From the NCBI GenBank assembly GCA_046331425.1, contig JAXLQU010000031.1:1-45229 (forward strand): 45,229 nt of DNA, given 5' to 3'. The notes under the pieces were generated by a model, which worked only from the letters and a program-made list of their open reading frames with translations, was not told the DNA's origin and did not search any database. Shown in pieces: positions 5,311 to 27,748 of the stretch. The stretch comes from Acidobacteriota bacterium. Its GTDB lineage: Bacteria > Acidobacteriota > Polarisedimenticolia > J045. Within the stretch, counting starts at the first letter, position 1. Every line of letters begins with the position of its first letter. Position numbers and translations under genes: made by a program.

Positions 5311-6100
5311 CTGCGCTGCCGTGCCGCGCGAGTTGTTCGAGAGCGAGTTCTTCGGTCACGTCAAGGGCTCGTTCACCAGCGCCTTGCGCACTCGTGTCGG
5401 CCGTTTCGAGTTGGCGCACGGCGGGATGTTGTTGCTCGACGAGGTCGGCGAGATTCCGCAGGAGTTGCAGGCTAAGTTGCTTCGCGTGCTGCAAGAGGGT
5501 GAGTTCGAACGCGTGGGCGAAGAGCGCACGCGCAAGGTCGATGTCCGCGTGCTGGCGGCAACCCATCGCGATCTACGCCGCGACGCCGACGCCGGCCGTT
5601 TTCGAGCCGATCTTTACTACCGCCTGAGCGCGTTTCCAATCGAGGTTCCTCCGCTGCGCGAACGTCCCGAAGATGTACCGATTCTGGCCGAAGCGATTCT
5701 TGCCGCAGCGGCGCGTCGACTGGGTCGCAAGGCGCCGCGATTGACGCGTGCGGTGATGCAGCGATTGCAGGGTGACGCGTGGCCGGGGAATGTGCGCGAA
5801 CTTCAGCACGTGATCGAGCGTGCAGTGTTGACCTCGACAGGAGCGGCACTGGAAGTCGAAACGCTCGACGCGACACCCGCGCGAACGAGCGGTCAGCCGG
5901 TGACATCGTCCAAACGTCCAGTGCGCACCGCCGCCGAGTTACGTCAGATGGAAATCGACAACGTGAGGGCTGCGCTCTCGGCCGCAGATGGAAAGGTCTA
6001 CGGCAAGGGGGGTGCGGCCGAGTTGCTGGGGATGCGGCCGACCACACTCGCATCGCGCATGAAGGCGTTGGGATTGGACACGCGCAGCCTGCGGCGCTGA
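5279..6100 (+). pseudogene. sigma54-dependent transcriptional activator (NtrC family), N-terminally truncated (no receiver domain, no Walker A)
   Basis: The ORF starts inside the AAA+ sigma54 domain at ...[23 protein letters not shown] (the NCAA / ESELFGH region). It retains the GAFTGA-like loop (GSFTSA), LLLDEVGE (Walker B), [26 protein letters not shown] and a C-terminal Fis-type HTH. GESGTGKE and the receiver are absent. It overlaps the truncated hydrolase by 32 bp. Confidence 0.6.
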
Positions 6101-6358
6101 GTCGGGCCGAGCTTCCGTGCGCGCACCGCGCCCCGGCGCTGACTAGATCGGAAATCGGGGAGCGCGCGGCGGAAGCGTTCGCGCGTACTCGTCGATGCGG
6201 GCGTGCCATTCGCTCGTCCTGATCACGTCGCGAGTCGATTCACCTAGCAGCGGCAAGATCGGCTCGGCCCGGAGTGCACTTGTCCATCGATGGTCCGGCT
6301 AGGCCCAGGTCTCGACCGCTGCCATAATCACGAGCCCACGACGGAGGTGCGACTCAGC

Positions 6359-13131: not shown

Positions 13132-15030
13132 TTACGGCGCGGGGTTCCCCTCTGGGCTATCGGGCGGTCGACGCGACGCTGAATCGCTCGAGGCGGATCC
13201 ACTGCCGGTTCCTGCCCCGCGTCCCTTCATGCTGTCGTGCACCATGTTGGCGAGCAGCACGCTGACGATCGAGTTCCCGCCCCCATCGCCGCCGCCACCG
13301 GCGATGATGTCGGGCACCAACTTCTGCCCGCTCCCGGCCAACGCTCTTGCGATCTCGACGCTGGCGAAGTTGCCCGATTGCATCGAGTCGATCTTCAGCC
13401 GGATGACATCGGCCTCGGCGGTTCCCACCGCCTTGGTCTTTTCGGCTTCGGCGCGTCCGACGGTGAGCACCACGTTGGCATCGGCAGCGGCATTGATGGT
13501 CTTCGATTGCGCGTCACCCTCGGCCGACGCGATCTTGGCTTGTGCCGTGAAGCCTGCAATCGTCACGCTTCGTTCGGCGTCGACGACGCGCGGTTGCGTG
13601 TCGGCCAGTGCCTTGGCTTGTGCCAGTTCCTTGCGGGTGTCTTCCGCCAAACGCTGCGTTTCGAAGGTGATCTTCTGCTGTTCGGCGAGCTTGCGGTCGG
13701 TTAGCGTGGTCATCAGTTGCGCCGGTGGTGTGATGTCACCGATCAGCGTGTCGACCGCGCCGACGTTGTATTCGGCAAGCGCCGCCATGATCCGATGCTT
13801 GGCATCGTCCTGCCGCTTCTGACGCTCTTTCAAGAAGTCGATCACATCCGACCCTTGCGCCGCATTGCGGAAGTAGTTGCCGATCGTCGGCTCCAGCACC
13901 TGGGTAACAAGGTTGAGCATGCTGCCGAAGCGCGCGATCACCTTGGGCGCATCGTTGCGCGGAATGTGAATGATTTGACTCACGTCGAGGTTGAATGTGA
14001 ATCCGTCGGAAGAGCGAACCGTGATCGTGGAGAGGTTCTTGTCGAGCAGATGCGCTTCCGTTTTTCCCGTCGCCCAATTGAGCACCACGTTGGCGGTCGG
14101 CACCAGTTCAACCTTGTGCGTAAAGGAATTGATCGGGTACTTGCCAGGGTCGAGCGGGTCGACGCACACGCCCTTCTCCCCTTTGCTTACCAGGTTGCCG
14201 TGCTTGAATGACTCGCCGGTGACGTCGATCCCCTTCTTACCGACATACGCAATCACCACACCGACGTGCGCGATCGGCACATCGGTCATCGGCTTGGTCT
14301 CGACGGTCGCGAAGCGGGGGTTGATGAAATAGCGGCCGGCCAACAGCACCGCTTCCTGCAACCCCTTGTTACCGCCGGCATCGATGAAGGCCTGCGCGTC
14401 TTGGTAGCTGTTGTGCCCCATTACTTCCGGGCCTGCGATCTCTCCGTCGCCGGTGTTGAGTGGCTTGCCTTCGCGCGTCGTCACGATCCCGACCATGTTG
14501 TCTTCGATCTCGGTCACCGGTTCCGGCACGACCGAGAACAGCGCGGTGTTGATGCGGTACGTTCCAGGCGGGATGATCGCCAACTGCGGGCCTCGCTCGC
14601 CGCCACCCGTTAGAAACTGCCGCGCGTTCTGGAACGAATCGCAGGGCACCTGCTTGCCGAGCACGCGACCGTGCGACAGCGAGTGACCGTCGCGCGCTTC
14701 CACGACGCCGATGAACCCTTCGTTGACGTCGGTGAACTTCTGTCGCGTGACGTCATACTGCCAGGGCCAAAGCATGAAGTGCACACCGGGCGCCAACGTG
14801 TCGGCTTGAAAGCCAGCCTCGCCGTTGAGCGCAATGATCGCGCCGTCGGGAAGCGTGCGGTTCTTTCCGAACACGACCCACTTCTTGTTGACGATTCCAA
14901 TCGAGTCTTCGGGGATGATCACCACGCCGAACATCCGCAGCACCAGCTTGTAGCTGACCAGCAGCAGCAAGAACGCGACAATGGCGATCGCCCACCAAAA
15001 GTGCAGAACCAAGTACAGAACGTTGTTCAT
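13132..15030 (-). CDS. Flotillin-like SPFH/Band-7 family membrane protein (YqiK/FloT-like)
   Basis: N-terminal TM (LYLVLHFWWAIAIVAFLLLLVSY), then an SPFH domain, then a flotillin Ala/Glu-rich coiled coil (AEAEKTKAVGTAEADVIRLK) and a Gly/Ser-rich tail. Start at Met47 behind GAGGGGG. The ORF track begins at 15168. Confidence 0.85.
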   Translation of the reverse strand: MNNVLYLVLHFWWAIAIVAFLLLLVSYKLVLRMFGVVIIPEDSIGIVNKKWVVFGKNRTLPDGAIIALNGEAGFQADTLAPGVHFMLWPWQYDVTRQKFTDVNEGFIGVVEARDGHSLSHGRVLGKQVPCDSFQNARQFLTGGGERGPQLAIIPPGTYRINTALFSVVPEPVTEIEDNMVGIVTTREGKPLNTGDGEIAGPEVMGHNSYQDAQAFIDAGGNKGLQEAVLLAGRYFINPRFATVETKPMTDVPIAHVGVVIAYVGKKGIDVTGESFKHGNLVSKGEKGVCVDPLDPGKYPINSFTHKVELVPTANVVLNWATGKTEAHLLDKNLSTITVRSSDGFTFNLDVSQIIHIPRNDAPKVIARFGSMLNLVTQVLEPTIGNYFRNAAQGSDVIDFLKERQKRQDDAKHRIMAALAEYNVGAVDTLIGDITPPAQLMTTLTDRKLAEQQKITFETQRLAEDTRKELAQAKALADTQPRVVDAERSVTIAGFTAQAKIASAEGDAQSKTINAAADANVVLTVGRAEAEKTKAVGTAEADVIRLKIDSMQSGNFASVEIARALAGSGQKLVPDIIAGGGGDGGGNSIVSVLLANMVHDSMKGRGAGTGSGSASSDSASRRPPDSPEGNPAP

Positions 15031-15480
15031 CGCAAAACCCCCTCTGTGACGGTCGGTGCTGGCCTGCGAGACTGTTATCACTCGGTCCACGGCCGGCCGC
15101 GATCCGGCCCGGATTCTGGGTGAATCGGTCTCGCTTTGGGAATGACCTAGTCGCTGAGCGATCTTCAAACACCACTATACGGTTGACGGGACGTCGTTAA
15201 GGTGGGGCGGTTGGGTACTCCTTACCCGTCTCACGACCGGACTGTCACTCGTTGGCCATCTCTGCTCGTCCCGCTCCGGCCCATCCGCGCGGGCTTGCAA
15301 CCGGCGCCCAGGGGCTTTCCTTCCGGGTCGCAGCAGGGATGACCGAACGGTGCAACACCAACTTGATCGCTCTCTCGAACAGGCCTTCAGTCGCGTGATA
15401 CCTCTGGCCGAGTCGCGCATCACAACCGTCGTGGTTGCAACGGGCATCACAGCCTCGACGGCAACTCGGAGGTTTCGTTC

Positions 15481-17139
15481 ATGCACACTGGCTTTCGACA
15501 AAGCTCCTTGCTGCTGCTTTCCAATCAACGCCCACGGCGAATTGTGCTCGGCACATGGCTCGCCGCTTGTTCATTGCTCTCTCTCTCCTCCTCCTTCTCC
15601 GCGCCGGATCCCCCCTCCGGCATCCCCGACGCGATCGTCGACCTGGCCACATCGCAAGGTGTGAGCCAGGTCGGCGGCGCGTGGCGGTATGCGGATGCTC
15701 AGGTGGTGGACGTTGATTTCCGCGCGGCTGGGCCCGATCGCAAACCGAGCGGCGCCCCGAATCGAACCTACGACATCGCGCCGCATGCAGGCGGCGTGGA
15801 ATTCGATGATCGCGCTTGGCAAGTGCTCGACCCGCCCAACTTCGAGTCGCGACGCGGCAATGGGCGCGTCTCGTTCGCTTGGTTGCGCCTGAATCTGAGA
15901 ATCCCGGAGAAAGTTGGCGACTTCGTCACAGCCGGTTCCACCGCCGTGTTCGAAATCACCGTCGACGATTACGCCGAGGTCTGGCTCGATGGAAAGCTGC
16001 CGCGCGAGTTGGGGCAAAGCGGCGGCTCGATGATCGCCGGTTTCAACGTGCCCAACCGCTTGCAGGTTTCCGCGCGTGTGAAGCCGGGCGAGTCGCATCA
16101 GCTTGCCGTGTTCGCGATCAACGGCCCGATCAGCGATCCGCCCGCCAACTACATTTGGGTTCGTTCGGCGAAGCTGTTGTTCTACCGCACGCCTCGTGCG
16201 ATCGCACCGCGTGCTGTTCCGGTCGACGTGGTGCGGCTGGACCCCGCAGTCGACAGCATCGTTCCCAGGGACGCGACGCTCGAGAAGATCGCCGAAGGGT
16301 TTGCCTTCACCGAAGGGCCTGTTTGGGCCAAGGACGGGTCGCTGCTTTTCTCCGACCCCAACGAGAATCGAATCTACCGCTGGACCCCCAACGCACCGTT
16401 GACGGTCTTTCGCGACAAGAGTGGCTACGACGGCGCCGACATCGCCGAGTACGGTCAGCCCGGCAGCAACGGGTTGACCTTCGACAAGCAGGGAAGACTG
16501 ACGATCGATGAACATGGGCGACGCCGTGTCACGCGACTGGAGCCTGACGGTCGACTGACGGTGCTTGCCGATCGCTTCGAGGGCAAGCGTCTCAACAGCC
16601 CGAACGACTTGGTGTATCGCAGCGATGGCGCTTTGTACTTCACCGACCCGCCGTTCGGGTTGCCGAAGTTCCACGACGACCCTCGCCGCGAATTGCCTGA
16701 CTTCGACCTGTTTCTTTTGAAGGACGGCGTGCTTCAGAAGGTGGTCAGCGATCTGCGCGGACCCAATGGTTTGGCCTTTTCACCTGATGAGAAATATCTT
16801 TACGTCACCAATTGGGACGATACGAAGAAGTGGGTCACACGCTACCCGGTCGACGCCGATGGCACGCTCGGCAAAGGCTCGGTCTTCTTCGATATGGCCG
16901 CTGCTCCAGAAGCGGAAGCGCTCGACGGCATCAAGCTCGACAAACAAGGGCATCTGTTTGTCTCGGGACCAGGCGGTGTCTGGGTGATCAGCGCCGAGGG
17001 GAAACATCTCGGCACGATCAGAGGCCCGGAAGCGCCCGCCAACTTTGCTTGGGGCGATAGCGACGGCCGCACGCTGTACATGACCGCGCGCACCGGGCTG
17101 TACCGGATGCGCTTGTCCGTAACAGGTATTCGACCCTGA
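15481..17139 (+). CDS. SMP-30/gluconolactonase/LRE-like beta-propeller lipoprotein with extra N-terminal beta-sandwich domain
   Basis: Lipobox LAAC after RRIVLGTW. The C-terminal 300 aa show FTEGPVWAKDGSLLFSD, NGLAFSPDEKYLYVT and GIKLDKQGHLFVS (SGL six-bladed propeller). The N-terminal ~230 aa form a galactose-binding-like region. RBS GGAGG upstream. Confidence 0.75.
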   Translation: MHTGFRQSSLLLLSNQRPRRIVLGTWLAACSLLSLSSSFSAPDPPSGIPDAIVDLATSQGVSQVGGAWRYADAQVVDVDFRAAGPDRKPSGAPNRTYDIAPHAGGVEFDDRAWQVLDPPNFESRRGNGRVSFAWLRLNLRIPEKVGDFVTAGSTAVFEITVDDYAEVWLDGKLPRELGQSGGSMIAGFNVPNRLQVSARVKPGESHQLAVFAINGPISDPPANYIWVRSAKLLFYRTPRAIAPRAVPVDVVRLDPAVDSIVPRDATLEKIAEGFAFTEGPVWAKDGSLLFSDPNENRIYRWTPNAPLTVFRDKSGYDGADIAEYGQPGSNGLTFDKQGRLTIDEHGRRRVTRLEPDGRLTVLADRFEGKRLNSPNDLVYRSDGALYFTDPPFGLPKFHDDPRRELPDFDLFLLKDGVLQKVVSDLRGPNGLAFSPDEKYLYVTNWDDTKKWVTRYPVDADGTLGKGSVFFDMAAAPEAEALDGIKLDKQGHLFVSGPGGVWVISAEGKHLGTIRGPEAPANFAWGDSDGRTLYMTARTGLYRMRLSVTGIRP

Positions 17140-17164: not shown

Positions 17165-18019
17165 ATGCGCACTCGACTGGCTGTACTCGCTGTGCTCGCC
17201 ACCCTAGCGTCCTCCGCCTGGGCGCAGATTGGCGAGAAGAAAGTCCTCTCGCTCGAGGCTGCCAAGCAGGTGGTTGCTGCGGCGGTCCGCGAGGCCAACA
17301 AGGACAATCACACCGCTGCAATCGCGATTGTCGACGACGGCGGCAACCTGATGTTGCTCGAACGGCTCGACAACACATTCGCTGCCGGGCCGTTGATCTC
17401 GTATGGCAAGGCGCGCACCTCGGCGCTTTTCAAGAAGCCGACGCGCGTCTTCGAGGAGATCATCAAGAACGGCCGCACGCCGATGGTGGCACTCAACGAC
17501 TTCACCCCGCTGCAAGGCGGCGTACCGCTCGAGATCGATGGCCAGATCGTGGGGGCCATCGGCGTCTCCGGCGCGGCCAGCGCACAGCGCGATGAAGAGG
17601 TGGCACTCGCGGGAGCAGCCGCACTGGCAACCGTCCCGAAGAACGTAAGCGTCCCGGCAGTGGAGTACTTCGAGCGCAAAGCAGTCTCGGCGGCATTTGC
17701 CAAAGGCCAGCCGTTGCTCGAAGTCAGCGACTACAAGGTGCATGCGAGCCATCGCGACAAGGCCGGCCTGGCGGAGGTCCACGCACGTGAGACCGATGTG
17801 ATCTACGTGGTCGATGGGCAGGCGACGTTCGTTACCGGCGGGACGGTTGTTGAAGCCAAAGAGACGGCGCCGTTCGAAACACGGGGCCGCGGCATCGATG
17901 GCGGTGACGTACGCAAGCTTGCCAAAGGAGATGTGGTGGTGGTTCCCAATGGAACGCCGCATTGGTTTCGTGACGTCAACGGCGCGTTCGACTACTTCGT
18001 CGTCAAGGTGATCGACTGA
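17165..18019 (+). CDS. Secreted GlcG/HbpS-like (DUF336) heme-binding domain fused to a C-terminal cupin domain
   Basis: Signal peptide MRTRLAVLAVLATLASSAWA. DUF336 region: AAIAIVDDGGNLMLLERLD...GVPLEIDGQIVGAIGVSGAASAQRDEEVA. Cupin region: VIYVVDGQATFVTGG...GDVVVVPNGTPHWF. Confidence 0.7.
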   Translation: MRTRLAVLAVLATLASSAWAQIGEKKVLSLEAAKQVVAAAVREANKDNHTAAIAIVDDGGNLMLLERLDNTFAAGPLISYGKARTSALFKKPTRVFEEIIKNGRTPMVALNDFTPLQGGVPLEIDGQIVGAIGVSGAASAQRDEEVALAGAAALATVPKNVSVPAVEYFERKAVSAAFAKGQPLLEVSDYKVHASHRDKAGLAEVHARETDVIYVVDGQATFVTGGTVVEAKETAPFETRGRGIDGGDVRKLAKGDVVVVPNGTPHWFRDVNGAFDYFVVKVID

Positions 18020-18063: not shown

Positions 18064-18093
18064 GAGCCCGCCGCCGGCGGGCTTTTTCTTTGT
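18064..18093 (+). terminator. Rho-independent terminator (GCCCGCCGCCGGCGGGC hairpin followed by TTTTTCTTT)
   Basis: Read directly, 45 nt after the stop of the GlcG-cupin gene. It separates that gene from the DUF692 gene. Coordinates are +/-2. Confidence 0.55.
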
Positions 18094-18129
18094 CTGAAAC
18101 GGGGCGCGCTCGCGCTGCATCCAACCGGC

Positions 18130-18981
18130 ATGAAACAGCACACCATTACCGGCGCAGGAATCGGTTTGCGAAAAGAGCACCACGACACGGTGCTCGCAGA
18201 AAAACCACCGGTCGCCTGGTTCGAAGTGATCTCCGAGAACTTCATGGTCGACGGCGGCAAGCCGATCCAGGTTCTAGACCGTGTGCGACGCGACTACCCG
18301 GTGGTGATGCACGGCGTGTCGTTGTCGATCGGCTCCGATGATCCACTCGACAAAGACTACCTGCGCAAACTCGGGCAGCTCGAAAAGTGGCTGCAACCGT
18401 CACTGGTTTCCGATCACTTGTGCTGGACTTCAGCCGGCGGCCACAACAGCCACGACTTGCTTCCGCTGCCGCGCACCGAAGCGACGCTGCACCGTGTGGT
18501 CGAGAAGATCGGCCAAGTGCAAGACCTGCTCGGCAGGCAATTGCTGCTCGAGAACATCTCCAGTTACCTCGAGTTTCAGCAGTCGACCTTGGGCGAAGCC
18601 GAATTCTTGGCCGAGGTCGCTGTGCGTGCCGACTGTTTGATACTGCTGGACGTCAACAATCTCTACGTCAACACCCGCAATCATGGCTTGGATCCGTTCA
18701 CCTACATGAACTGGCTTCCGGCGGAACGGGTTGCGCAGTTCCACCTGGCGGGCCATCAGGATCTCGGCGATGTCGTGATCGACACTCACGATGGCCCAGT
18801 CTGCACCGATGTGTGGGACCTGTATCGGCGCGCCGTACGGCGCTTCGGCGCAGCACCGACACTGATCGAATGGGACGCCAACATTCCACCGCTTCAGACC
18901 GTGCTGGCTGAAGCACACCGCGCCGATGCCGCCGCTCGCGAAGCGCTGATGGAGCTCAACCATGTGCAGCGCATTGCCTAA
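18130..18981 (+). CDS. bufB: DUF692 family (MbnB/BufB-like, TIM-barrel di-iron) RiPP-modifying enzyme
   Basis: Hallmark DUF692 blocks: GIGLR..H, WFEVISENFM, YPVVMHGVSLSIGS, VSDHLCWT, HDLLPLP.TE and LLLENISSYL. Confidence 0.85.
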   Translation: MKQHTITGAGIGLRKEHHDTVLAEKPPVAWFEVISENFMVDGGKPIQVLDRVRRDYPVVMHGVSLSIGSDDPLDKDYLRKLGQLEKWLQPSLVSDHLCWTSAGGHNSHDLLPLPRTEATLHRVVEKIGQVQDLLGRQLLLENISSYLEFQQSTLGEAEFLAEVAVRADCLILLDVNNLYVNTRNHGLDPFTYMNWLPAERVAQFHLAGHQDLGDVVIDTHDGPVCTDVWDLYRRAVRRFGAAPTLIEWDANIPPLQTVLAEAHRADAAAREALMELNHVQRIA

Positions 18982-19786
18982 GCCGGTCAGCGATCTGGCT
19001 GTGGCCCAACGGAAGTTCTTGCGCGACTTGTCCGGCCTCGAATCGCGGGACGCCGCCTCACGCGCAGAACAGTTCTGTGCGCCACCGGCCGGCGATGTCG
19101 AGCGACGCTGGCACGTCTACACCTCGGGTTACTTCGTGCGGTTACGCGACGTGCTGGCGCAGGACTACCGCGCCATCGCGCGGATTGCTGGTGACGATGC
19201 CTTCAGCGGTTTGGTCGGGCGTTATCTGATGGCTTGCCCACCGCGTCGCTACGACTTGGCGATGGCCGGTGAGCGCTTCCCCAGCTTTGTCGGCAGCGAC
19301 GCACTGAGCTCGAGCCTGCCCTTCATCCCCGACCTCGCGCAGCTCGAGTGCGCTGTTTCCGACTGCTTCATCGCCGCCGAGCCTCAGCCGCTGACCTGGA
19401 AGGGGCTGCGAGAGATGCCGTCAAGCCAAGCGGCCGAGCGCAGCATTGCGCTTCAGCCATCGGCACGCGTGCTTCGCTCGATCTGGCCGCTACGCGACTT
19501 GTGGCAGACCGCCTTCACACCCGAAGACGATGAGATCGATATCGACTTGAGTGAGAAACCACGTTGCTTTCTCGTGCATCGCAACGAGGGTGAGATCTTC
19601 GTGAGAGAGATCGACGACGAGCTCGCCACATTGCTTCAAGCCGCGGAACAGCAGGGCAACACACTCACAGGACTCGCCGCCTCGCTATCGCTCGGTGACG
19701 AGCCCGAGGATGTACGCAGCTTCTTGATGTTGATGCAGCGCGCTCTGGCGCTATCGCTTTTCACTCTCAACCCCGTCGCCACTTGA
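18962..19786 (+). CDS. bufC: DUF2063 family protein (MbnC/BufC-like partner of DUF692)
   Basis: The WHVYTSGYFVRLRDVLAQDY...GDDAF..LVGRYL...P...YDL...GERFPSFV pattern is typical of DUF2063. The start overlaps the end of bufB by 20 nt. Confidence 0.7.
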   Translation: MCSALPKPVSDLAVAQRKFLRDLSGLESRDAASRAEQFCAPPAGDVERRWHVYTSGYFVRLRDVLAQDYRAIARIAGDDAFSGLVGRYLMACPPRRYDLAMAGERFPSFVGSDALSSSLPFIPDLAQLECAVSDCFIAAEPQPLTWKGLREMPSSQAAERSIALQPSARVLRSIWPLRDLWQTAFTPEDDEIDIDLSEKPRCFLVHRNEGEIFVREIDDELATLLQAAEQQGNTLTGLAASLSLGDEPEDVRSFLMLMQRALALSLFTLNPVAT

Positions 19787-19815
19787 ATGGACGACACACA
19801 CTCTCTGGAGGCTCG

Positions 19816-20136
19816 ATGAACGGAAAGTCGAAGTTGTTTTTGGCAGCATTGGCTGGTGCACTCGCTCTCCCCTCGCTCGCGCTGGCCGAGGACGCCAAGC
19901 CGGGTACCGACAAAGATGCCGGCAAGGTGCCTTGCTGGGGCATCAACAAGTGCAAGGGCGTTGGCGACTGCGGTGCCGATGGCTGCCGTCACAGCGGTTG
20001 TCACGGTTCCAACGGCTGCAACGGCAGCGGCTTCATTCGCTTGGAAGCGGAAACCTGTCTGAAGATCGTGGGTGGCCGCCTGACCAAGGCTGCCGAGCCG
20101 GCCAAGGTCGAAAAGAAGGGCAAGGACAAGAAGTAA
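19816..20136 (+). CDS. bufA: DUF2282-type (bufferin-like) RiPP precursor peptide with Sec signal peptide and 7 Cys
   Basis: MNGKSKLFLAALAGALALPSLALA|EDAKPG..., then a core VPCWGINKCKGVGDCGADGCRHSGCHGSNGCNGSGFIRLEAETCLKIVGGRL that matches the DUF2282 pattern (C[YW]G...NxC...HSxC...TC.KI.GG). Lys-rich tail. GGAGG 7 nt upstream of the ATG. The ORF track begins at TTG 19783. Confidence 0.75.
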   Translation: MNGKSKLFLAALAGALALPSLALAEDAKPGTDKDAGKVPCWGINKCKGVGDCGADGCRHSGCHGSNGCNGSGFIRLEAETCLKIVGGRLTKAAEPAKVEKKGKDKK

Positions 20137-20218
20137 TCAGATCGTTGCTGGGACGGTTGGCGCCGCGCGTCATCCGTCCCTTGCTTCTGGTGCCGCGCCG
20201 CGACCGCGCGAGCAGTGG

Positions 20219-22024
20219 CTAGATCAATCCCACATGCCGCATCAACTCCAGGGCGTTGCTCTTGGAAACAACACCCTCGTGCAGGCGATAGTCGAAGCGC
20301 ATCTCACCGCCTTCCAGGTGATCGACAAAGTGCACGTTCCGAACATCGCTCCCCAACGAGGCGGCGCTCTCGGTGAGCGCTAGGTCATGCGTGGTCAATA
20401 GGCCAATCGCTCCAAGCGTGTGCAACTCGCGCATCAGCGCTTCGGCTCCCAGCTTGCGATCGTGCGAGTTGGTTCCCGACAGCAACTCATCGATCAGAAA
20501 CAGAAGCGGAGATCCGTCGCGAGCGATCTGCACGATCGTCCGCAAACGATCGAGTTCCGCCAAGAAGCGTGAGCGGCCATCCAACAGCGAGTCTTGCGCT
20601 CGCAACGACGCCCCGAGCGAAAGCGGCGTGAGCGTCAGGCTTGCGGCGCGCACGGGTGACCCTGCTTGGGCCAGCACCGTATTCACACCGATCGAGCGAA
20701 GCAGCGTGCTCTTCCCCGACATGTTGGATCCGCTGACGATTAGCAGGCGTGTGGTTGCCCCGAGTCGCACATCGTTGTGGACGCAGCGTTCGAGCGGTAG
20801 CAGCGGGTGCCCGAGCTTTTCCGCCTCGAATCGCGGGGCGCCGCTCACCAATTGCGGGTAGACCATTTCCGGCTGCTCGAATGCGAACGCCGCCAAAGCG
20901 GAAAGCGCTTCCAATTCGCCCGCCGCCTCGAACCAGTCATGCACCGCTGGGCCGTAACGAGCGCGCCACGTTTCCACAGCCAATGCATGCTGCGTGGCCC
21001 AAAATAATGGCAGCGACACGGGAAGAAAGATCTGATTGAGACGCCAATCGAGGCGATCGAGCGTGGCCGCCAACTGCGCGATCGCGCGCGACGCCGGCGC
21101 CTCGCCCGCGATGCGCCGCTGCAATACCACCAGCGCCGGCGACGCAAACGGCTCCACCTCGATTCGTTGCAGCAGTCCCGACAGTACCTTCAGTTCGGGA
21201 GCGGCCCCCTCCGCCGCTGTCAATACCGCTTCGACGCGCGGACGCAGGTACGTCCCCAGGAATCCAGATGCGATCAACACCGTTGGACCACACCACCATG
21301 GAATCGAGGAGATCGAGCCAAAGGACCACTGCGACCATGACGCCGTCATCAACAAGAGCGCTGCGAGGTTGGCCACAACGGCGAACCCCACCGGCACGCG
21401 CCAAGCGCTCAGATCGGCCTTGCGAGCACGACCCCAACCCTCCAAGAGATCAGCATGCACGCGGCGGGTCGCCTCCTCGCCCAACAGCGCCAGTGCCTCG
21501 CGCAACTCGACGCGCGGCGTGAGCTCTTGAATTGCGAGTTGTCGCGCGCGCACCTCGTCCGGCGCACTCGGGGTCGACAGCCAGCGGGCGAGCGCCCGCC
21601 GACCAGCATTCGTTCGGGTGCTCGCCAATCGTTCGAACAACGAACCGCGCCCATACAGGTCAAGGTCGAGTGCAAACGGGTGCGCCGCCTCGAAAAGGTC
21701 GTTGCCATCGTCGCCGGTACCGGGCCACTCCCCAGCCAAACGGGCCAAGCCTGCTTCGTAGAAACGTACCGCGCGGGCCGCGCGTCGAGCCGCCTGCAGC
21801 GCGCGATCGTGAATCAGCACTGTCGTTGCGAACGCAACGACGGCCGCGCCGACCCACCAGGGTGAGATTCGGCCCGAAGCGGCCAGGGCCAGCGCCCCGA
21901 TCCCCGCTATGAGTAAGGCCAACCTCGATCCCACGAACAGTCGGTCGCGGCCGGCCATGGCGGCCTCGACCCCGCGCCAGTGATCGCGGCGACGTTCGTA
22001 TTCGTGCTGAGGTGTGTGATTCAT
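20219..22024 (-). CDS. MutS-family ATPase (domain V ABC-type ATPase only; no mismatch-binding or connector domains; N-terminal TM helices)
   Basis: C-terminal IVSGSNMSGKSTLLRSIG (Walker A), ...LLFLIDELLSGTN (Walker B/D-loop) and TTHDL (H-loop). Hydrophobic segments in the N-terminal half. Start at Met95 (MNHTPQ); an alternative is Met85 at 22054. The ORF track begins at 22306. Confidence 0.65.
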   Translation of the reverse strand: MNHTPQHEYERRRDHWRGVEAAMAGRDRLFVGSRLALLIAGIGALALAASGRISPWWVGAAVVAFATTVLIHDRALQAARRAARAVRFYEAGLARLAGEWPGTGDDGNDLFEAAHPFALDLDLYGRGSLFERLASTRTNAGRRALARWLSTPSAPDEVRARQLAIQELTPRVELREALALLGEEATRRVHADLLEGWGRARKADLSAWRVPVGFAVVANLAALLLMTASWSQWSFGSISSIPWWCGPTVLIASGFLGTYLRPRVEAVLTAAEGAAPELKVLSGLLQRIEVEPFASPALVVLQRRIAGEAPASRAIAQLAATLDRLDWRLNQIFLPVSLPLFWATQHALAVETWRARYGPAVHDWFEAAGELEALSALAAFAFEQPEMVYPQLVSGAPRFEAEKLGHPLLPLERCVHNDVRLGATTRLLIVSGSNMSGKSTLLRSIGVNTVLAQAGSPVRAASLTLTPLSLGASLRAQDSLLDGRSRFLAELDRLRTIVQIARDGSPLLFLIDELLSGTNSHDRKLGAEALMRELHTLGAIGLLTTHDLALTESAASLGSDVRNVHFVDHLEGGEMRFDYRLHEGVVSKSNALELMRHVGLI

Positions 22025-22109
22025 CGGACCTGAAGGGTAACCCAGCCGATTCATGCCTGCGTTTTGAAACCATTGGCAGAGGCTGTGCATCCTACGCCAG
22101 GACCCCCGA

Positions 22110-22694
22110 GTGGGCAGCCAAGAGGACGGCATGGAACCGACGATCGACCCGAACTGGGAGAACACACTGGCATCGCGAGAGGCAGTGCGGGTTCTGCGCT
22201 GGGCCGACGAGGCGATTCGCGAGCGTGGGTCGTTTCGAATCGCGCTCGGGGGTGGAGCCAACCTGCGTCCCTTGTTGGCTGCGATCGCGTTGGAGAGTGA
22301 GCACACCCGCGCGGATTTCCACCGCTGGCATGTCTACTGGTGCGAGGAAAGACACGTCCCTCCCTATCACCGCGACAGTTGCTATCGACTGGCCGAGCAA
22401 GCGCTGTTGGGCCGCGTGCCGGTGCTTCCCGAGAATTTGCATCGCATTCGCGCCGAACATCGCGATCCGCATGAAGCGGCTCGCAGCTATGAGTTGCTGC
22501 TGCGCCGCAGCTTCGCGATGTCGGCCGGCGATCTGCCGCAGTTCGATGCGGTCGTGGTTGGCAGCCGAGCCCAGGGAACGGTGATCGGCCTCACGGGGGC
22601 GGTCTTGAACGTTGCGCGCCACGTTCTGACGTGGGGCGATGCGCCACCTTTGCCCGCGCTGCCCTCACTTGCCGGTGTGAGGACGCAGGCGTGA
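22110..22694 (+). CDS. 6-phosphogluconolactonase/glucosamine-6-P deaminase-family protein (divergent C-terminus)
   Basis: RIALGGGAN...W..VHVYWCEERHVPP.H.DS(C)YRL pattern resembles Pgl (IALSGG...vhvf.gDERcVP..h.dSN). The catalytic DGHTAS region is not conserved (QGTVIGLTG). The stop overlaps the sigma-factor GTG (GTGA). Confidence 0.45.
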   Translation: MGSQEDGMEPTIDPNWENTLASREAVRVLRWADEAIRERGSFRIALGGGANLRPLLAAIALESEHTRADFHRWHVYWCEERHVPPYHRDSCYRLAEQALLGRVPVLPENLHRIRAEHRDPHEAARSYELLLRRSFAMSAGDLPQFDAVVVGSRAQGTVIGLTGAVLNVARHVLTWGDAPPLPALPSLAGVRTQA

Positions 22695-23374
22695 CCGCAA
22701 ACGACCGCCACGCGGAGACACCGCGCGAGCGTGATAGCCTGGCGCCTGTGTGGAACCCCGTGAAGAACTCGGCGCCATCGGCCCAGCCGTCAAGCGAGGC
22801 CGATCTGATCCAGCGCCTTCGAGCCGGCGATGAGCGCGCCTTCGAGCAGGTGGTTCGAACGCACTCGGGACGCTTGCTCTCCGTCGCACGCCGCTTCATG
22901 CGCAACGACGACGATGCGTGCGATGTCTTGCAGGAAGCGTTTATTTCGATGCATCGCGCGATCCACTCGTTCGAGTCGGGCGCGCGGCTCTCCACCTGGC
23001 TGCACCGCATCACCGTCAATTGCGCGCTGATGAAGATTCGCTCGCGCAAGTGCCGGCCCGAGATCGCGATCGACGACCTGATGCCGCGCTTCACCGAGGA
23101 CGGTCATCACGTCGACCCACCCTGCCCCTGGGCTGAAGACACCGACGTCTCCATGGCCCGCGAGCAAACGCGCACGATGGTCCGCGCGGCGATCGATCGC
23201 TTACCCGAGAACTATCGAACCGTGCTGTTGCTCCGCGACATCGAGGAACTCGACACTGAGGAGACAGCCCAGGTCCTGGGAATCAGCGCCAATGCCGTGA
23301 AGGTCAGGTTGCATCGCGCTCATCAAGCGCTGCGCACGATGATCGACACGCACTTCAAGGAAACACTCCGATGA
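22691..23374 (+). CDS. ECF (sigma-70 group IV) sigma factor
   Basis: Region 2 (DLIQRLRAGDERAFEQVV...DVLQEAFISMHRA...WLHRITVNCALMKIRSR) and region 4 (LPENYRTVLLLRDIEELDTEETAQVLGISANAVKVRLHRAHQALR). The GTG start is inferred from overlap with the upstream stop. An alternative start is further downstream. Confidence 0.75.
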   Translation: MTANDRHAETPRERDSLAPVWNPVKNSAPSAQPSSEADLIQRLRAGDERAFEQVVRTHSGRLLSVARRFMRNDDDACDVLQEAFISMHRAIHSFESGARLSTWLHRITVNCALMKIRSRKCRPEIAIDDLMPRFTEDGHHVDPPCPWAEDTDVSMAREQTRTMVRAAIDRLPENYRTVLLLRDIEELDTEETAQVLGISANAVKVRLHRAHQALRTMIDTHFKETLR

Positions 23375-23613
23375 CTTGCCGAGAGTTTGCCGAGTTCATT
23401 GATTCCTTCATCGGTGGTGGGCTTTCCAACGATGAAGCGCAGGAGTTTCACCGCCACTTGGCGGTGTGCAGCGATTGCGTCAACTACATCGACACCTATC
23501 GGCGCACGATCGCCATGAGCAAGCGTGCCTTCGAGTCGATGCCCGAAGCCTCGGTGCCCGAGGATGTGCCTGAAGATCTGGTGAAAGCGATCCTGGCATC
23601 CCGCAAGCCTTGA
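23371..23613 (+). CDS. Short cytoplasmic ZAS (zf-HC2, HxxxCxxC) anti-sigma factor
   Basis: 80 aa, no TM segment. It contains C3, and H29-LAV-C33-SD-C36 (HRHLAVCSDC) is the zinc anti-sigma motif. ATGA overlap with the sigma-factor stop. Confidence 0.65.
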   Translation: MTCREFAEFIDSFIGGGLSNDEAQEFHRHLAVCSDCVNYIDTYRRTIAMSKRAFESMPEASVPEDVPEDLVKAILASRKP

Positions 23614-23657: not shown

Positions 23658-26318
23658 GTGGCGAGCGCGACTCCGGCAGGCGTAGCATCCTGCGTTGCTG
23701 TGTTGCCGACACTCGCATCTCGGCCTGGGCGAGGACCTCAAACGACTCCTTCACCTTTCATCGATCGACTTCGACGTTGGCTCGGCCCCGTCTTCGCCGC
23801 ATCGCTGTTCGGGGCGGCACTCTGGGCGATTCATCGCGAGCTGGGACCGTATCATCACGGGCAAATCGTCGAGGCGCTGCAGCAGATACCGGCGTCGCGC
23901 ACACTGCTCGCGCTGCTCCTGACGGTGACCAGCTATCTGCTCCTGACGCTCCTCGATCAGGTCACGCTTCGTGCGATCCACGTAACGCTTCCCTATCGCC
24001 GCGCCAGCTTTGCCTCGCTCGTGGCCTACGCCTTCAGTCATAGCGTCGGCTTTGCCGCGGTCACCGGCGCGGCAATCCGATACCGCTTGTATTCGGCCTG
24101 GGGACTTTCAGCGTCAAAGATCGCGCAGTTTCTGGTCTTGGGAACCACTGCTTTCTGGCTCGGTTTTGCGCTGGTCGGCGGCGTTTGGTTTGTCAAGGAC
24201 GCGAGCGACGTAAGCGAGAGTTCTCTTCTTCGAACGCCTCGCGCGACGTTCTGTCTTGGACTGCTGCTGTTGTCGCTGCTCTCGATCTATCTGGTGGTGT
24301 GCCTTCGGCGGCGCAGGTTCCGCGTTCTGCCCTGGCGCGACTACGATCTCCCGCTGCCGTCGCCGTCATTGGCGATTCTGCAAACCGGCATTTCAGCACT
24401 CGACTGGATCGCGAGTGCTGCAGTGTTGTGGGTCCTGCTCGATCAACCCGAGATGTCGTTGTGGCGATTCCTTGGCGTGTTTCTGCTCGCTCAAGTGGCG
24501 GGAGTGATCAGTCAGATACCGGGCGGGCTGGGTGTGTTCGAATCGTTGGTGCTGACGTTGACCGGGGATGCCCACCCCACGCCTGCGATCGCAGCGGCGT
24601 TGATCTCGTATCGGTTGCTCTATTACGTGCTGCCGCTCGTCACCGCTGCCGCGCTCTTCAGCGCACGTGAGACCTTCGCTCGCTGGCCGAGGGTCGAGCG
24701 GGTCTCGCGAGCAATGGGGCGATGGGCTTCGGGCGTGATTCCCACGCTGCTGACTGTGACCACCTTCGCTGCTGGAATCGTCCTGCTCGTGTCGGGCGCG
24801 ACACCGGCGGAGAGCTGGCGTCTGAAGTGGCTGCGCGATGTCGTCCCGCTTCCTGTGATCGAACTCTCGCACTTTCTCGGCAGCCTGACCGGAGCCGGTC
24901 TCCTGCTCTTGGCTCGCGGCCTTCAACAACGCCTCGATGCTTCCTACACGCTGACCGCGCTGTTGCTTGCCGCCGGGGCAGGCTTTTCACTCGCCAAGGG
25001 CGTGGACTATGAGGAGGCGTTGTTCTTGGTCGGCATGTTGGCGCTGTTGTTGCCGTGTCGCCGCCACTTCTATCGACGCGCATCGCTGTTCGCCGAACCG
25101 TTCACGCCGGGCTGGCTCGTGGCCGTAGCGGCCGTGATCGCCGCCACCGCTTGGATCAGTGTGTTCGCGCACAAACATGTCGAGCTCGCTGGCGATTTGT
25201 GGTGGACATTCGCATTCAGAGGCGATGCCTCGCGCACGCTCCGCGCGCTGACCGGTGTGGTGGCACTCGTTGCCGTGATCGGTACGGCGCGATTGCTGCG
25301 GCCCGCACCGGCCCGGCCTCAGCTCCTCACCAGCGACCAGAAACCGCGACTGCTTCAGGCGCTTGCGAACTGCTCCGACACGTCGGCCAACTTGGCGTTG
25401 CTGGGCGACAAAGCGGTGCTCTTCAGCCCAACCGGGAACAGCTTCGTGATGTACGCGGTCGAGGGGCGGAGTTTCGTAGCACTCGGCGATCCTTCGGGGC
25501 TCCAGAGCGAGATCGCGGACTTGGCCTGGCGGTTTCGCGAGTTGGCCGACCGGCATGGCGGCTACACCGTGTTCTATGAAGTCTCCGCTAGCCGATTACC
25601 GATGTACCTCGATATGGGTTTGGCGCTAGTCAAGCTAGGCGAGGAGGCGCGGGTCGCGTTGGATGAGTTCTCGATTCAGGGCAACTCCGGCAAGTCGTTT
25701 CGCAGCGCCATCAACAGCATGACCAAGGACGGATGCAGTTTCGAGATCGTCGCGACGGCCGACGTTCCGGCTCTTCTTCCCACGCTTCGTGCGATATCGG
25801 ACGCCTGGTTGGCGAGCAAGAACACGCGGGAGAAGGGGTTCTCACTGGGGTACTTCGACGAGGAGTATTTGGCGAACTTTCCGATGGCGGTGGTCCGTCA
25901 GCACGGCAGGCCGATTGCGTTCGCGAACATTTGGGCCGCCTCTGACGGCGGTGAGTTGTCGGTCGATCTGATGCGGTTTGCCGAGGATGCGCCCAAGGCA
26001 ACGATGGACTTTCTGTTCTTACAGACGATGCTGTGGGGCAAGGAGCGGCACTACCGGTGGTTCAACTTGGGAATGGCACCGTTGTCCGGACTGGAGGCGC
26101 ATCGGTTGGGGCCACTCTGGGGGCGCGTGGCGTCGTTTGTCTTCCGACACGGCGAGCACTTCTACAACTTCCAGGGCTTGCGTCAGTACAAGCAAAAGTT
26201 CTCCCCGGATTGGCAGCCGCGATATCTGGCGTTTCCGGGTCGTCTTACGTTTGCTCGAGTGTTGCTCAACGTTGCTTCCTTGACTTCCGGGGGTTTGAGA
26301 GGCGTGGTGACCAAATGA
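23658..26318 (+). CDS. mprF: Aminoacyl-phosphatidylglycerol synthase / flippase (MprF/LpiA family: LPG_synthase_TM + DUF2156 lysyl-tRNA-dependent transferase domain)
   Basis: About 14 TM helices over ~540 aa, then the C-terminal DUF2156-like domain (...FVMYAVEGRSFVALGDPSG...YTVFYEVS...YLDMGLALVKLGEEARV...FSIQGNSGKSFRSAIN...). Confidence 0.8.
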   Translation: MASATPAGVASCVAVLPTLASRPGRGPQTTPSPFIDRLRRWLGPVFAASLFGAALWAIHRELGPYHHGQIVEALQQIPASRTLLALLLTVTSYLLLTLLDQVTLRAIHVTLPYRRASFASLVAYAFSHSVGFAAVTGAAIRYRLYSAWGLSASKIAQFLVLGTTAFWLGFALVGGVWFVKDASDVSESSLLRTPRATFCLGLLLLSLLSIYLVVCLRRRRFRVLPWRDYDLPLPSPSLAILQTGISALDWIASAAVLWVLLDQPEMSLWRFLGVFLLAQVAGVISQIPGGLGVFESLVLTLTGDAHPTPAIAAALISYRLLYYVLPLVTAAALFSARETFARWPRVERVSRAMGRWASGVIPTLLTVTTFAAGIVLLVSGATPAESWRLKWLRDVVPLPVIELSHFLGSLTGAGLLLLARGLQQRLDASYTLTALLLAAGAGFSLAKGVDYEEALFLVGMLALLLPCRRHFYRRASLFAEPFTPGWLVAVAAVIAATAWISVFAHKHVELAGDLWWTFAFRGDASRTLRALTGVVALVAVIGTARLLRPAPARPQLLTSDQKPRLLQALANCSDTSANLALLGDKAVLFSPTGNSFVMYAVEGRSFVALGDPSGLQSEIADLAWRFRELADRHGGYTVFYEVSASRLPMYLDMGLALVKLGEEARVALDEFSIQGNSGKSFRSAINSMTKDGCSFEIVATADVPALLPTLRAISDAWLASKNTREKGFSLGYFDEEYLANFPMAVVRQHGRPIAFANIWAASDGGELSVDLMRFAEDAPKATMDFLFLQTMLWGKERHYRWFNLGMAPLSGLEAHRLGPLWGRVASFVFRHGEHFYNFQGLRQYKQKFSPDWQPRYLAFPGRLTFARVLLNVASLTSGGLRGVVTK

Positions 26319-27748
26319 TGCGAATGACGTTCGGATTGTTGCTCTTGGCGTCGAGTTTCGTAGCGAGCGCAGGCACGCAAATGTCAAACAACGAGTCGCT
26401 GACATTCGGTGCGTTTGGCAAGGTCGCGCTGTATCGCCCAGCCTCTGCCATCGAGGATGTCGTGCTATTCGTTTCCGGAGACGGCGGCTGGAATCAAGGC
26501 GTGGTCGACATGGCAAAGCAACTGGTCTTGATGAATGCGCTCGTGCTGGGCATCGACATGCCGCGATTTGAAACCGCATTGAAGGCTGAGAAAGGCGCAT
26601 GCGCCTACCCTGCCGCCGAGTTCGAAGCGTTGAGTCAGTACGTCCAAAAGAAGCTCGACTTGCCGGACTACAAGACCCCGATTTTGGCGGGCTACTCTTC
26701 AGGCGCAACTCTGGTGTACGCGCTCTTGGCGCAAGCACCGGGCGGAACCTTCGCCGGCGGGTTGAGCCTCGGCTTTTGCCCCGACCTGGAGGTCACCAAA
26801 CCACTGTGCAAAGGAAGTGGCCTAACGTTCGTGCCGTTGCCCAAGAAGAATGGCTTCGTCTTCGATGCCAACCCTGCACTCCCCGCTCCGTTTCACGTGC
26901 TGCAAGGCGACATCGATCAGGTCTGTCAGCCCGAGGCGACACGCACCTATCTTTCCAAGATCCCAGCGGCAAAACTGTATTGGCTCCCGAAGGTCGGACA
27001 CGGCTATTCGGTCCCCAAGAACTGGTTGCCTCAGTTCCGCGACGCCTATCGTGATCTAAGAACGGTGAGCGCTCCCGATCGAACGCAAGCACACACGTCG
27101 CTCGGTACGACGGGCGCATCGACGCCATCAGTCGATGATCTGCCGCTGGTCGAGGTGCCGGCCGTCGGGGAAGTGCAGGACAGCGTGGCGGTGATTCTCA
27201 CCGGAGATGGCGGCTGGGCCGGACTCGACAAGCAAGTTGCCGGCGCGTTGGCCGCGCGCGGAATCCGCTGTATCGGCTGGAATTCCCTGCGCTACTACTG
27301 GACCGCGCGGACACCCGACTCAGCCGCGGCCGATCTCGCCCGCATCGTGCTACTGATCCAAGCGCAGTCGCCGGGCGCGAAGGTCCTGCTGATTGGCTAC
27401 TCGCTGGGCGCGGATGTCTTGCCGTTCCTGATCTCGCGTCTCTCCGAGACGCAACGGATGATGATCGCATCGGCCACGTTCATCGCGCCTTCGTTGTCGG
27501 TGGCGTTCGAGTTTCATCTCTCCAACTGGACAGGCGGCTCGCAGGCGGACGCCAAGCCGACGCTCCCTGAGATGCAAAAGCTCGCAGGCATGAAGCTGTT
27601 GTGCCTGTACGGAACCGACGACGAAGACTCGCTTTGCCCCAAGCTTCCGGCAGAACTGGCCAGCGTTCAGAAGATGCCGGGTGGACATCACTTTGGTGGT
27701 GATTACGAGGCCGTTGCCTCTCGGATCATTGCGGCAACCCAGCCGTAG
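26315..27748 (+). CDS. acvB: AcvB/VirJ-like periplasmic aminoacyl-PG hydrolase (tandem VirJ alpha/beta-hydrolase domains)
   Basis: Signal peptide MMRMTFGLLLLASSFVASA. Two related halves each carry a ...V(L/I)..(S/T)GDGGW... block (VVLFVSGDGGWNQGV and VAVILTGDGGWAGLD), plus GYSSGA and GYSLGA nucleophile elbows. Start at Met95 of the track ORF, overlapping the mprF stop (ATGA). This is the known lpiA-acvB gene order. Confidence 0.7.
   Translation: MMRMTFGLLLLASSFVASAGTQMSNNESLTFGAFGKVALYRPASAIEDVVLFVSGDGGWNQGVVDMAKQLVLMNALVLGIDMPRFETALKAEKGACAYPAAEFEALSQYVQKKLDLPDYKTPILAGYSSGATLVYALLAQAPGGTFAGGLSLGFCPDLEVTKPLCKGSGLTFVPLPKKNGFVFDANPALPAPFHVLQGDIDQVCQPEATRTYLSKIPAAKLYWLPKVGHGYSVPKNWLPQFRDAYRDLRTVSAPDRTQAHTSLGTTGASTPSVDDLPLVEVPAVGEVQDSVAVILTGDGGWAGLDKQVAGALAARGIRCIGWNSLRYYWTARTPDSAAADLARIVLLIQAQSPGAKVLLIGYSLGADVLPFLISRLSETQRMMIASATFIAPSLSVAFEFHLSNWTGGSQADAKPTLPEMQKLAGMKLLCLYGTDDEDSLCPKLPAELASVQKMPGGHHFGGDYEAVASRIIAATQP

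Follow-up and report, generated by a model that had tools for sequence, protein, structure and literature searches.

Bufferins are Sec-exported peptides, made by ribosomes and modified after translation (RiPPs), in which BufB and BufC turn cysteines into 5-thiooxazoles to yield peptides that buffer copper in the periplasm (PMC11626156). In Buf2 of Caulobacter vibrioides, CysI and CysVI stay unmodified and probably form a disulfide, and the four central cysteines change by about −4 Da each, to a total of −18 Da; the buf2 operon is induced by copper and has no DoxX gene, and DoxX is dispensable for the modification of Buf1 (PMC11626156). The order bufABC is said to be strictly conserved in bufferin biosynthetic gene clusters (BGCs), and for this reason the main survey of the family took precursor candidates only from open reading frames (ORFs) that precede genes for multinuclear non-haem iron oxidases (MNIOs) (PMC12452194). 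The same survey contrasts bufferin BGCs with TIGR04222 genes, which sometimes stand after MNIO genes, and reports sigma/anti-sigma (NrsF) genes in Buf1 BGCs and not in Buf2 BGCs (PMC12452194). The locus analyzed here lies on contig JAXLQU010000031.1 of an Acidobacteriota bacterium (assembly GCA_046331425.1; Polarisedimenticolia), of which the whole stretch of 45,229 nucleotides (nt) is referred to as the window. It has the order bufB-bufC-bufA (B-C-A) and not the stated bufA-bufB-bufC (A-B-C), and it is quite probably a bufBCA operon for a Buf2-type bufferin, a predicted periplasmic metal-buffering peptide.

The cluster is made up of three co-directional ORFs on the forward strand, as a prediction made earlier from the letters of the sequence had proposed. 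The first, bufB (18130..18981, +, 283 residues), matches the Pfam family MbnB_TglH_ChrH (PF05114, DUF692) end to end with 365.5 bits (cut-off 25) and the NCBIfam equivalog MNIO_BufB with 378 bits, above the cut-off of 310; the second-best NCBIfam match is HvfB with 258.5 bits against a cut-off of 360. Overall, BufB stays far under the NCBIfam cut-offs of HvfB, ApyH, MbnB and ChrH (methbact_MbnB, 54.5 bits versus 325), so the original prediction of a DUF692 enzyme in a bufferin-type cluster holds, and its comparison with methanobactin turns out to be remote. The nearest solved structure is 3BWW, an HvfB-like DUF692 protein (E = 7e-45). Nine residues (H61, H96, E141, D174, N177, H205, D218, H220 and E247) are invariant in 76 of 76 BufB sequences and are candidate metal ligands; set against MbnB structures, they probably correspond to the His/Asp/Glu iron ligands of MNIOs. 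The second gene, bufC (18962..19786, +, 274 residues), overlaps bufB by 20 nt and encodes the DUF2063 (PME-type 1/HvfC-like) partner that had been predicted, with an N-terminal DUF2063 domain (Pfam, 51.2 bits, cut-off 27.2) and a C-terminal domain like a RiPP recognition element (RRE), for which only a weak NGO1945_C match was found (E = 0.021). The third, bufA (19816..20136, +), starts 29 nt past the bufC stop and 4 nt downstream of a Shine-Dalgarno element, GGAGG, read from the sequence (19807..19811, +). Downstream of bufA lies a probable bufBCA terminator (20150..20188, +), a hairpin GGGACGG...CCGTCCC followed by the U-rich tract UUGCUUCU; the RNA fold of 20130-20225 has −47.5 kcal/mol (z = −3.2), and an equally good fold occurred in 0 of 200 shuffles. 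An Rfam scan of the window gave zero matches.

BufA has 106 residues, seven cysteines and a predicted mature form of about 82 residues. Judged by inspection of the sequence, its N-terminus (MNGKSK-LFLAALAGALALPSLALA|ED) is a Sec signal peptide (about residues 1-24) with a basic n-region (K4, K6), a hydrophobic core and an A-x-A site (ALA24|ED), and it has no lipobox cysteine; a Sec signal and a cysteine-rich peptide had both been foreseen. The single NCBIfam match is BufA2 (bufferin-2; BUF_6/12Cys), at 52.6 bits (E = 4e-14) against a cut-off of 60; this family is also the only one matched by 24 of 24 aligned homologs, the best of them with E = 3e-21. The six cysteines invariant in the BufA alignment (C40, C46, C52, C62, C68 and C81) make up the Buf2 signature. 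Besides these, the extra cysteine that had been noted, C57, sits in a 3-residue G-C-R insertion between the third and fourth conserved cysteines; this insertion is confined to closer relatives, distant members reading GKG---HSC there, and its context, G-C-R, stands against C-K-G, C-G and C-x-G around the four central cysteines. An odd number of cysteines in a periplasmic protein needs explaining, and C57 may be converted to a fifth heterocycle, act as a free thiolate ligand or stay as it is. A peptide identical in all 106 residues is on record from an Acidobacteriota metagenome-assembled genome (MAG), whose contig has the same gene calls. As a separate observation, the B-C-A locus of another acidobacterial MAG (L022) has two tandem bufA genes after bufC (6010-6318 and 6332-6646), and one copy carries an independent, longer insertion with an extra cysteine at the same CysIII-CysIV position as the GCR of the window.

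The enzyme-first order is not a peculiarity of one contig. A GTDB scan with the BufA alignment, one genome per species, confirmed 336 relatives, and the analysis took the best 80; bufB, bufC and bufA were placed in each locus by tblastn, and the peptides were extracted. B-C-A order was found in 30 of these 80 species-level genome loci; in the window the precursor follows the enzymes, as predicted. It occurs in every one of the 17 loci (L001-L017) of a seven-cysteine (7-Cys) subtype, 'CWG...GCR.SGCHG', and in 13 further genome loci with ordinary six-cysteine (6-Cys) peptides, the labeled ones belonging to Vicinamibacteria, Polarisedimenticolaceae, Marinacidobacterales and other Acidobacteriota; a metagenome locus from Polarisedimenticolia (L086), again with a 6-Cys peptide, is B-C-A too. 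All B-C-A loci with a taxonomic label are from Acidobacteriota, and none is from Terriglobia. Nearly all remaining loci, from Myxococcota, Planctomycetota, Omnitrophota, Binatia, Thermodesulfobacteriota, Elusimicrobia and Gammaproteobacteria, are A-B-C, the exceptions being three in which bufB was undetected and one (L074) with bufB about 750 nt downstream. Even so, the order is not phylum-wide, with Koribacter and Acidobacterium (Terriglobia) apparently canonical: for both, the supplementary table of the survey lists consecutive accession numbers for Buf2, MNIO, DUF2063 and DoxX (PMC12452194), which implies the order A-B-C-D. In a midpoint-rooted neighbor-joining tree of 76 BufB sequences, the enzymes of B-C-A loci fall into a 7-Cys and a 6-Cys group, and A-B-C enzymes mix with neither.

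The junctions tie bufA to the enzymes. In most B-C-A loci bufB and bufC overlap by 4-23 nt, and bufC and bufA share an ATGA overlap in 13 of 33 B-C-A loci, most others having a gap of up to about 50 nt; most of the 33 have GGAGG, AGGAG or AAGGA before bufA. With both junctions this tight, bufA belongs to the bufBC operon and is not a stray gene. The bufC stop of the window, TGA at 19784-19786, is not present in the closest loci, L001 (99% identical; L001:3167-3202) and L002 (88%), whose bufC has 10 more codons and reaches over the bufA ATG (ATGA). The 29-nt gap of the window is thus due to an earlier bufC stop codon, and its BufC is therefore slightly truncated and the translational coupling of bufC to bufA lost. 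Other candidates for the arrangement were rejected. A hidden precursor upstream of bufB has no room, the window having only 110 nt there, filled by a terminator and a promoter; the 104-residue ORF that precedes bufB in L086 is STAS-like in appearance and without a signal peptide. Nor is bufA a member of a downstream second (B′-C′) pair, as the window is without a second MNIO gene, the second pairs of relatives own a 12-Cys precursor, and bufA often overlaps the bufC stop.

Upstream, the cluster had been described as insulated by an intrinsic terminator. This terminator is indeed present, at the end of the upstream HbpS-like/cupin gene (18064..18093, +): a GC-rich 9-bp hairpin with the stem GAGCCCGCC/GGCGGGCTT (9 pairs, 7 of them GC) and a 3-nt loop, followed by the T-run TTTTCTTTG. 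The cluster is not free of regulators, though, since directly after the T-run there is a motif of the type recognized by extracytoplasmic function (ECF) sigma factors, TGAAAC-N16-GCATCCAA (18095..18124, +), so that bufBCA would have its own conserved ECF-type promoter between terminator and bufB. The exact 12-base motif has two copies in the window, both intergenic and sense, versus 0.2 expected (at least two in 1 of 100 shuffles); the second copy, TGAAAC-N16-GCATCC (22065..22092, +), lies upstream of an operon of 6-phosphogluconolactonase-like (pgl-like), sigma and anti-sigma genes and would be an autoregulated promoter. A third copy in shortened form, GAAAC-N16-GCATC (19555..19580, +), inside bufC and 236 nt before bufA, is an uncertain candidate for an internal promoter; it is kept in L001 and L002 and absent from more distant loci, and it is inseparable from coding constraint because the encoded amino acids are conserved as well.

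The 17 7-Cys loci (220 kb) hold 37 sense and two antisense copies of GAAAC-N15/16-GCATC, with 0.48 in block-shuffled controls; there is one copy in 158 kb of 6-Cys B-C-A loci and there are nine in 468 kb of the remaining loci. An A that is no part of the search pattern, 3 bases after GCATC, is invariant in 37 of 37 copies, giving a TCnAA-like −10 element to go with the AAC-type −35 element. Genes with a copy 5-36 nt before their start codon are bufB, a short HbpS-like gene directly before bufB, HbpS-like/cupin genes and genes for zinc-binding anti-sigma (ZAS) proteins, and the motif also precedes sigma operons in 7-Cys loci. The copy before bufB is kept in L002 despite a different upstream gene, and it is found before bufB in L003, L004, L007, L009 and L011 too; orthologs of the HbpS-cupin gene have it in L003, L005-L008, L010-L012 and L016. 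In the window the last motif base is only 5 nt before the bufB ATG, and bufB has no Shine-Dalgarno element. Together with distances of 5-10 nt for bufB and several genes of the regulon, this suggests leaderless or near-leaderless mRNAs, that of bufB included.

The candidate regulator of bufBCA is an ECF sigma factor (22691..23374, +; Pfam Sigma70_r2 and r4_2) that matches NCBIfam sigma70-ECF with 90.6 bits (cut-off 42.9) and is an equivalog of no named sigma, the best model, PRK11922, giving 185.8 against a cut-off of 204. It is followed by an 80-residue soluble anti-sigma factor of the ZAS type (23371..23613, +; Pfam zf-HC2), which has C3 and H29-x3-C33-x2-C36, a weak match to RsrA (E = 8e-5) and no hydrophobic segment in its sequence. 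The pgl-like, sigma and anti-sigma genes are co-directional with overlapping stop and start codons; the pgl-like ORF (22131-22694), whose stop overlaps the sigma start, covers only positions 4-137 of the 234-position 6-phosphogluconolactonase model. In the same direction after the anti-sigma gene (23700-27748) there are genes for an MprF-like lysyl-PG synthase and for VirJ/AcvB-like proteins. The arrangement of motif, pgl-like, sigma and anti-sigma genes recurs in L001 and L002, and sigma/anti-sigma homologs are the next genes after bufA in L004 and L011, and those of L003 and L014 are no more than a few kb away. ECF sigma factors are commonly autoregulated, and on this ground the sigma factor would read the motif and have bufBCA in its regulon.

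Two further genes accompany the 7-Cys operons. In the window, a secreted SMP-30/gluconolactonase-like beta-propeller (15481..17139, +; Pfam SGL, 133.7 bits) and a secreted HbpS-like (GlcG/DUF336)-cupin fusion (17165..18019, +; Pfam HbpS-like, 110 bits, and Cupin) are encoded upstream of bufB, and orthologs of both adjoin bufBCA in 12 of the 17 7-Cys loci, in varying order. The SGL orthologs beside bufBCA in L003-L016 have 38-64% identity. The synteny of HbpS-like/cupin and SMP-30-like genes is seen in the window, L003-L016 and L084, with about 60% protein identity. A short HbpS-like gene 21-93 nt before bufB, apparently in the same operon, is present in seven loci, and the 6-Cys B-C-A loci are without HbpS-cupin and SMP-30-like neighbors. 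A functional link between HbpS-cupin and bufB is suggestive only, because in the window the terminator stands between them and the HbpS-cupin operon is without an exact copy of the motif. The survey of MNIOs (PMC12452194) makes no mention of HbpS-like or SMP-30-like partners.

In eight of the 7-Cys loci, another MNIO/DUF2063 pair follows bufA at a distance of 0.7-2.7 kb. Its enzymes fall inside the A-B-C clade of the BufB tree, and before each such pair stands a separate 12-Cys precursor of a duplicated BufA2 type, with repeats of CKGxNxCKGKGGCKxGDxGCxGKNSCKGKGGCA, in the canonical order A′-B′-C′ (precursors at L005:8486-8941, L006:7813-8280, L008:7815-8294, L010:7688-8173, L012:7667-8167, L014:6444-6851, L016:7670-8086 and L017:1953-2360). 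Of the eight, seven have the promoter motif between bufA and the 12-Cys cluster. Neither a second MNIO gene nor a second bufferin cluster is present in the window.

The original prediction had also pointed to the lack of an adjacent DoxX gene. None was found within about 8 kb on either side in the Pfam-annotated neighborhoods, nor among the larger ORFs of the window that were scanned. This absence is not distinctive, because the founding buf2 operon of C. vibrioides is without DoxX as well (PMC11626156) and the Buf2-type A-B-C loci inspected from other phyla have no DoxX-like or consistent membrane-protein gene after bufC.

Several other features of the neighborhoods may be recorded. A MutS2-like gene (MutS_III and MutS_V; 20219-21958) is convergent with bufA; only the closest relatives, L001 and L002, keep it downstream of bufA. 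Apart from the buf operon, a copper-related signature occurs only once in the window, 13 kb away, in a 1,278-residue right-handed beta-helix protein (950-4786, −) with repeated 'Cu-binding_MopE' motifs (Pfam, 44.7 bits). The window also encodes a Fic/DOC-domain protein (6290-7816) and a large SPFH/Band-7 protein (13132-15168). The neighborhood in L086 (4213-6494) is unlike that of the 7-Cys loci: after bufA come a YceI-like gene and an ORF that faintly matches YHS (metal-binding).

From these data we infer the following model. Transcription would start at the ECF-type promoter before bufB, which is probably recognized by the product of the ECF sigma gene 2.5 kb downstream, and the soluble RsrA-like zinc anti-sigma factor would hold this sigma factor, which would place the operon in a regulon for thiol/oxidative or metal stress. 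The MNIO BufB and its DUF2063/RRE-like partner BufC would act on BufA in the cytoplasm and turn its central cysteines into 5-thiooxazole heterocycles. Sec would then export BufA, with cleavage of the signal peptide at about ALA24|ED; the first and the last cysteine, C40 and C81, would form a disulfide, and the mature peptide of about 82 residues would bind copper in the periplasm. A mass shift of −18 Da is expected, and one of −22 Da if C57 too is converted. Premature export of a precursor that bears a signal peptide has been flagged as an open problem (PMC12452194). With the order enzyme, partner, precursor, the modification complex may be made before its export-competent substrate: BufB and BufC would be translated ahead of BufA from one message, which may help to capture the precursor in time. 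In many relatives bufA is coupled to bufC in translation, and its ribosome-binding site is strong.

It is imaginable to go further, if only tentatively. In Thermoanaerobaculia/Holophagae-like Acidobacteriota, the enzyme-first 7-Cys bufferin might be the core effector of an undescribed stress regulon under an ECF sigma factor and a soluble ZAS, together with the secreted HbpS-like/cupin and SMP-30-like proteins and sometimes the 12-Cys cluster. C57 might then add a fifth heterocycle or create a site of mixed thiolate/thiooxazole character whose specificity for metal or redox is changed, and the B-C-A order with coupling of bufC to bufA might be the solution to premature Sec export. We regard this combined proposal as speculative.

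Several points weigh against the assignment of the locus to Buf2 and against the model. The precursor stays under the curated BufA2 cut-off, a shortfall that coincides with the 3-residue insertion, and BufC matches the NCBIfam HvfC equivalog weakly (39 bits, cut-off 142). An AlphaFold2 model of BufA from the 24-sequence alignment has a mean predicted local distance difference test score of 48.4 and a predicted template modeling score of 0.25, values too low to search for similar folds or to locate C57. The BufB tree is midpoint-rooted and carries no support values. As to the chemistry, the identity of the heterocycles in Buf2 itself was inferred from Buf1, and the authors state that the modifications of Buf2 were not identified (PMC12452194). 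As to the regulation, no exact motif precedes the SGL/HbpS-cupin operon of the window, and the pairing of sigma factor and promoter is deduced from their co-occurrence and from presumed autoregulation.

The main rival to a copper-buffering Buf2-type operon concerns the physiological role and not the chemistry. The same peptide, made in the same way, could serve as one arm of an oxidative, thiol or haem-iron stress regulon, or could prefer another metal owing to its extra cysteine, so that its role would not be primarily that of a copper buffer; we hold this to be possible, although not likely. The RsrA-like class of ZAS anti-sigma factors senses thiol oxidation, the regulon marked by the motif holds secreted proteins of the HbpS-like (haem-binding/degrading) family, a cupin and an SMP-30-like propeller, and neither CopA nor Cus nor other copper resistance genes were found in the window. 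The bufferins of Caulobacter are controlled by the membrane protein NrsF (PMC11626156), whereas the anti-sigma factor found here is soluble, and roles of bufferins beyond copper are expected in the literature (PMC12452194). Yet both bufferins characterized so far respond to copper and protect against it (PMC11626156). A ZAS sensor also suits a copper role, as thiols are oxidized under copper stress too, and the synteny with HbpS-like and SGL genes could come from common regulation with no function in common.

The remaining readings, which concern the peptide itself, are poorly supported. According to the original prediction, the precursor was of the DUF2282 type; the locus would then be a BufA1-type cluster similar to Buf1/gig, rearranged and with DoxX lost. 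The label derives some credit from a precomputed 'weak' PF10048 tag that BufA and many of its homologs carry in a protein database, and from the report that BufA1 and BufA2 have similar predicted folds (PMC11626156). Pfam hmmscan, however, gave zero families for BufA and seven homologs even at E ≤ 10, NCBIfam gives BufA2 only, and the pattern of six conserved cysteines plus one differs from the four of DUF2282. The tag is a sign of distant similarity and not of membership, fitting the reported structural relatedness of BufA1 and BufA2, and we consider the DUF2282 label improbable; BufA2 takes its place. A sequence search of the PDB with BufA gave only spurious matches to ankyrin-repeat designs (E ≥ 0.076).

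Alternatively, BufA might not be a substrate at all but an unmodified cysteine-rich periplasmic protein, metal-binding or rich in disulfides, beside an MNIO pair that acts elsewhere. Sizeable numbers of bufferin precursor genes are not linked to MNIO genes (PMC12452194), and in the window no precursor stands before bufB. Against such a chance neighborhood, bufA follows bufC directly in B-C-A loci of several classes, often with the ATGA overlap, at only about 40-60% peptide identity; no other small cysteine-rich ORF with a signal peptide was seen beside bufB, and BufB is itself a BufB equivalog. A peptide that merely sits next to the enzymes is therefore very improbable. A secreted, methanobactin-like chalkophore for copper acquisition, to which the shared MNIO superfamily and the targeting of cysteines might lead, is scarcely credible given the MbnB score, the Sec-exported 106-residue precursor and an operon without MbnC, a short MbnA-like precursor, a MATE exporter or an MbnT-type TonB receptor.

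A bufBCA operon of the Buf2 kind matters for how such clusters are found. Bufferins are the largest group of MNIO-made RiPPs, and the basic picture of the family, described in 2024-2025, is unchanged by our data. The precursor-first assumption of the main survey, however, can miss or misfile the enzyme-first clusters of Acidobacteriota, which might end up under 'stand-alone precursors' or 'MNIOs without a precursor'. The B-C-A variant is natural material for two questions raised in the survey, premature Sec export and bufferin roles beyond copper (PMC12452194). The promoter motif, in turn, offers a testable regulatory link for uncultured Acidobacteriota, in which almost no promoters are known. 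New relative to the family are the B-C-A order, the lineage-specific seventh cysteine, and the regulatory and genomic context; no description of any of these was found in the literature searched, and searches for B-C-A bufferins, for HbpS/GlcG/cupin/SMP-30 partners and for ZAS links likewise found none. The expectation of an under-described variant was thus justified in the sense of a known kind, Buf2, that varies by lineage in order, cysteines and context.

Among the described systems, Buf2 of C. vibrioides (buf2ABC, CCNA_03001-02999) is closest to the locus: both have a BufB-type MNIO, a DUF2063 partner, a precursor with a Sec signal and no DoxX, and both share six cysteines in the motif series C-[YW]-G-x-N-x-C-K-G...C-G...C-x-G...C-x-G...C-L-[KR]-I. 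They differ in gene order (B-C-A versus A-B-C), in the seventh cysteine in the GCR insertion, in Trp in place of Tyr after CysI, in a precursor score just under the BufA2 cut-off, in the link to an ECF sigma factor and a soluble ZAS anti-sigma factor, and in the conserved HbpS-like and SGL neighbors. Buf1 (buf1ABCD, DUF2282/PF10048, 'gig' operons) has in common the enzyme pair and a precursor with a Sec signal; its conversion of cysteine to 5-thiooxazole, its buffering of periplasmic copper and its control by an ECF sigma factor (PMC11626156) are predicted for the locus of the window as well. Unlike the locus described here, Buf1 has four cysteines with the central two modified and the outer two in a disulfide, the DUF2282 signature, usually DoxX (bufD) and the order A-B-C-D, and its SigF is under the membrane anti-sigma factor NrsF, whereas the anti-sigma factor of the window is soluble and its peptide has no Pfam match to DUF2282. 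Oxazolin/HvfABC, gonophorin and fontiphorin (Buf_EGKCG 'captophorins') are also made by PME-type-1-dependent MNIOs, with 5-thiooxazoles and Sec-exported cysteine-rich precursors (PMC13097082), but these precursors have repeated EGKCG motifs, none of which occurs in the window peptide, and the HvfB and HvfC cut-offs are missed by the window enzymes. Methanobactin (MbnABC) resembles the locus, as predicted here, in that an MNIO acts on precursor cysteines to give copper ligands; it differs in its distinct MbnB/MbnC subfamily, in a short, leader-dependent precursor without a signal peptide, in its oxazolone-thioamide chemistry and in being a secreted chalkophore for uptake, and the partner in the window is a DUF2063 protein and not MbnC. 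Finally, the SigR-RsrA and SigF-NrsF regulons have an ECF sigma factor, a cognate anti-sigma gene and an apparently autoregulated promoter in common with the window; the anti-sigma factor of the window resembles RsrA weakly, and it is by presumption that its sigma factor is paired with the promoter of bufBCA.

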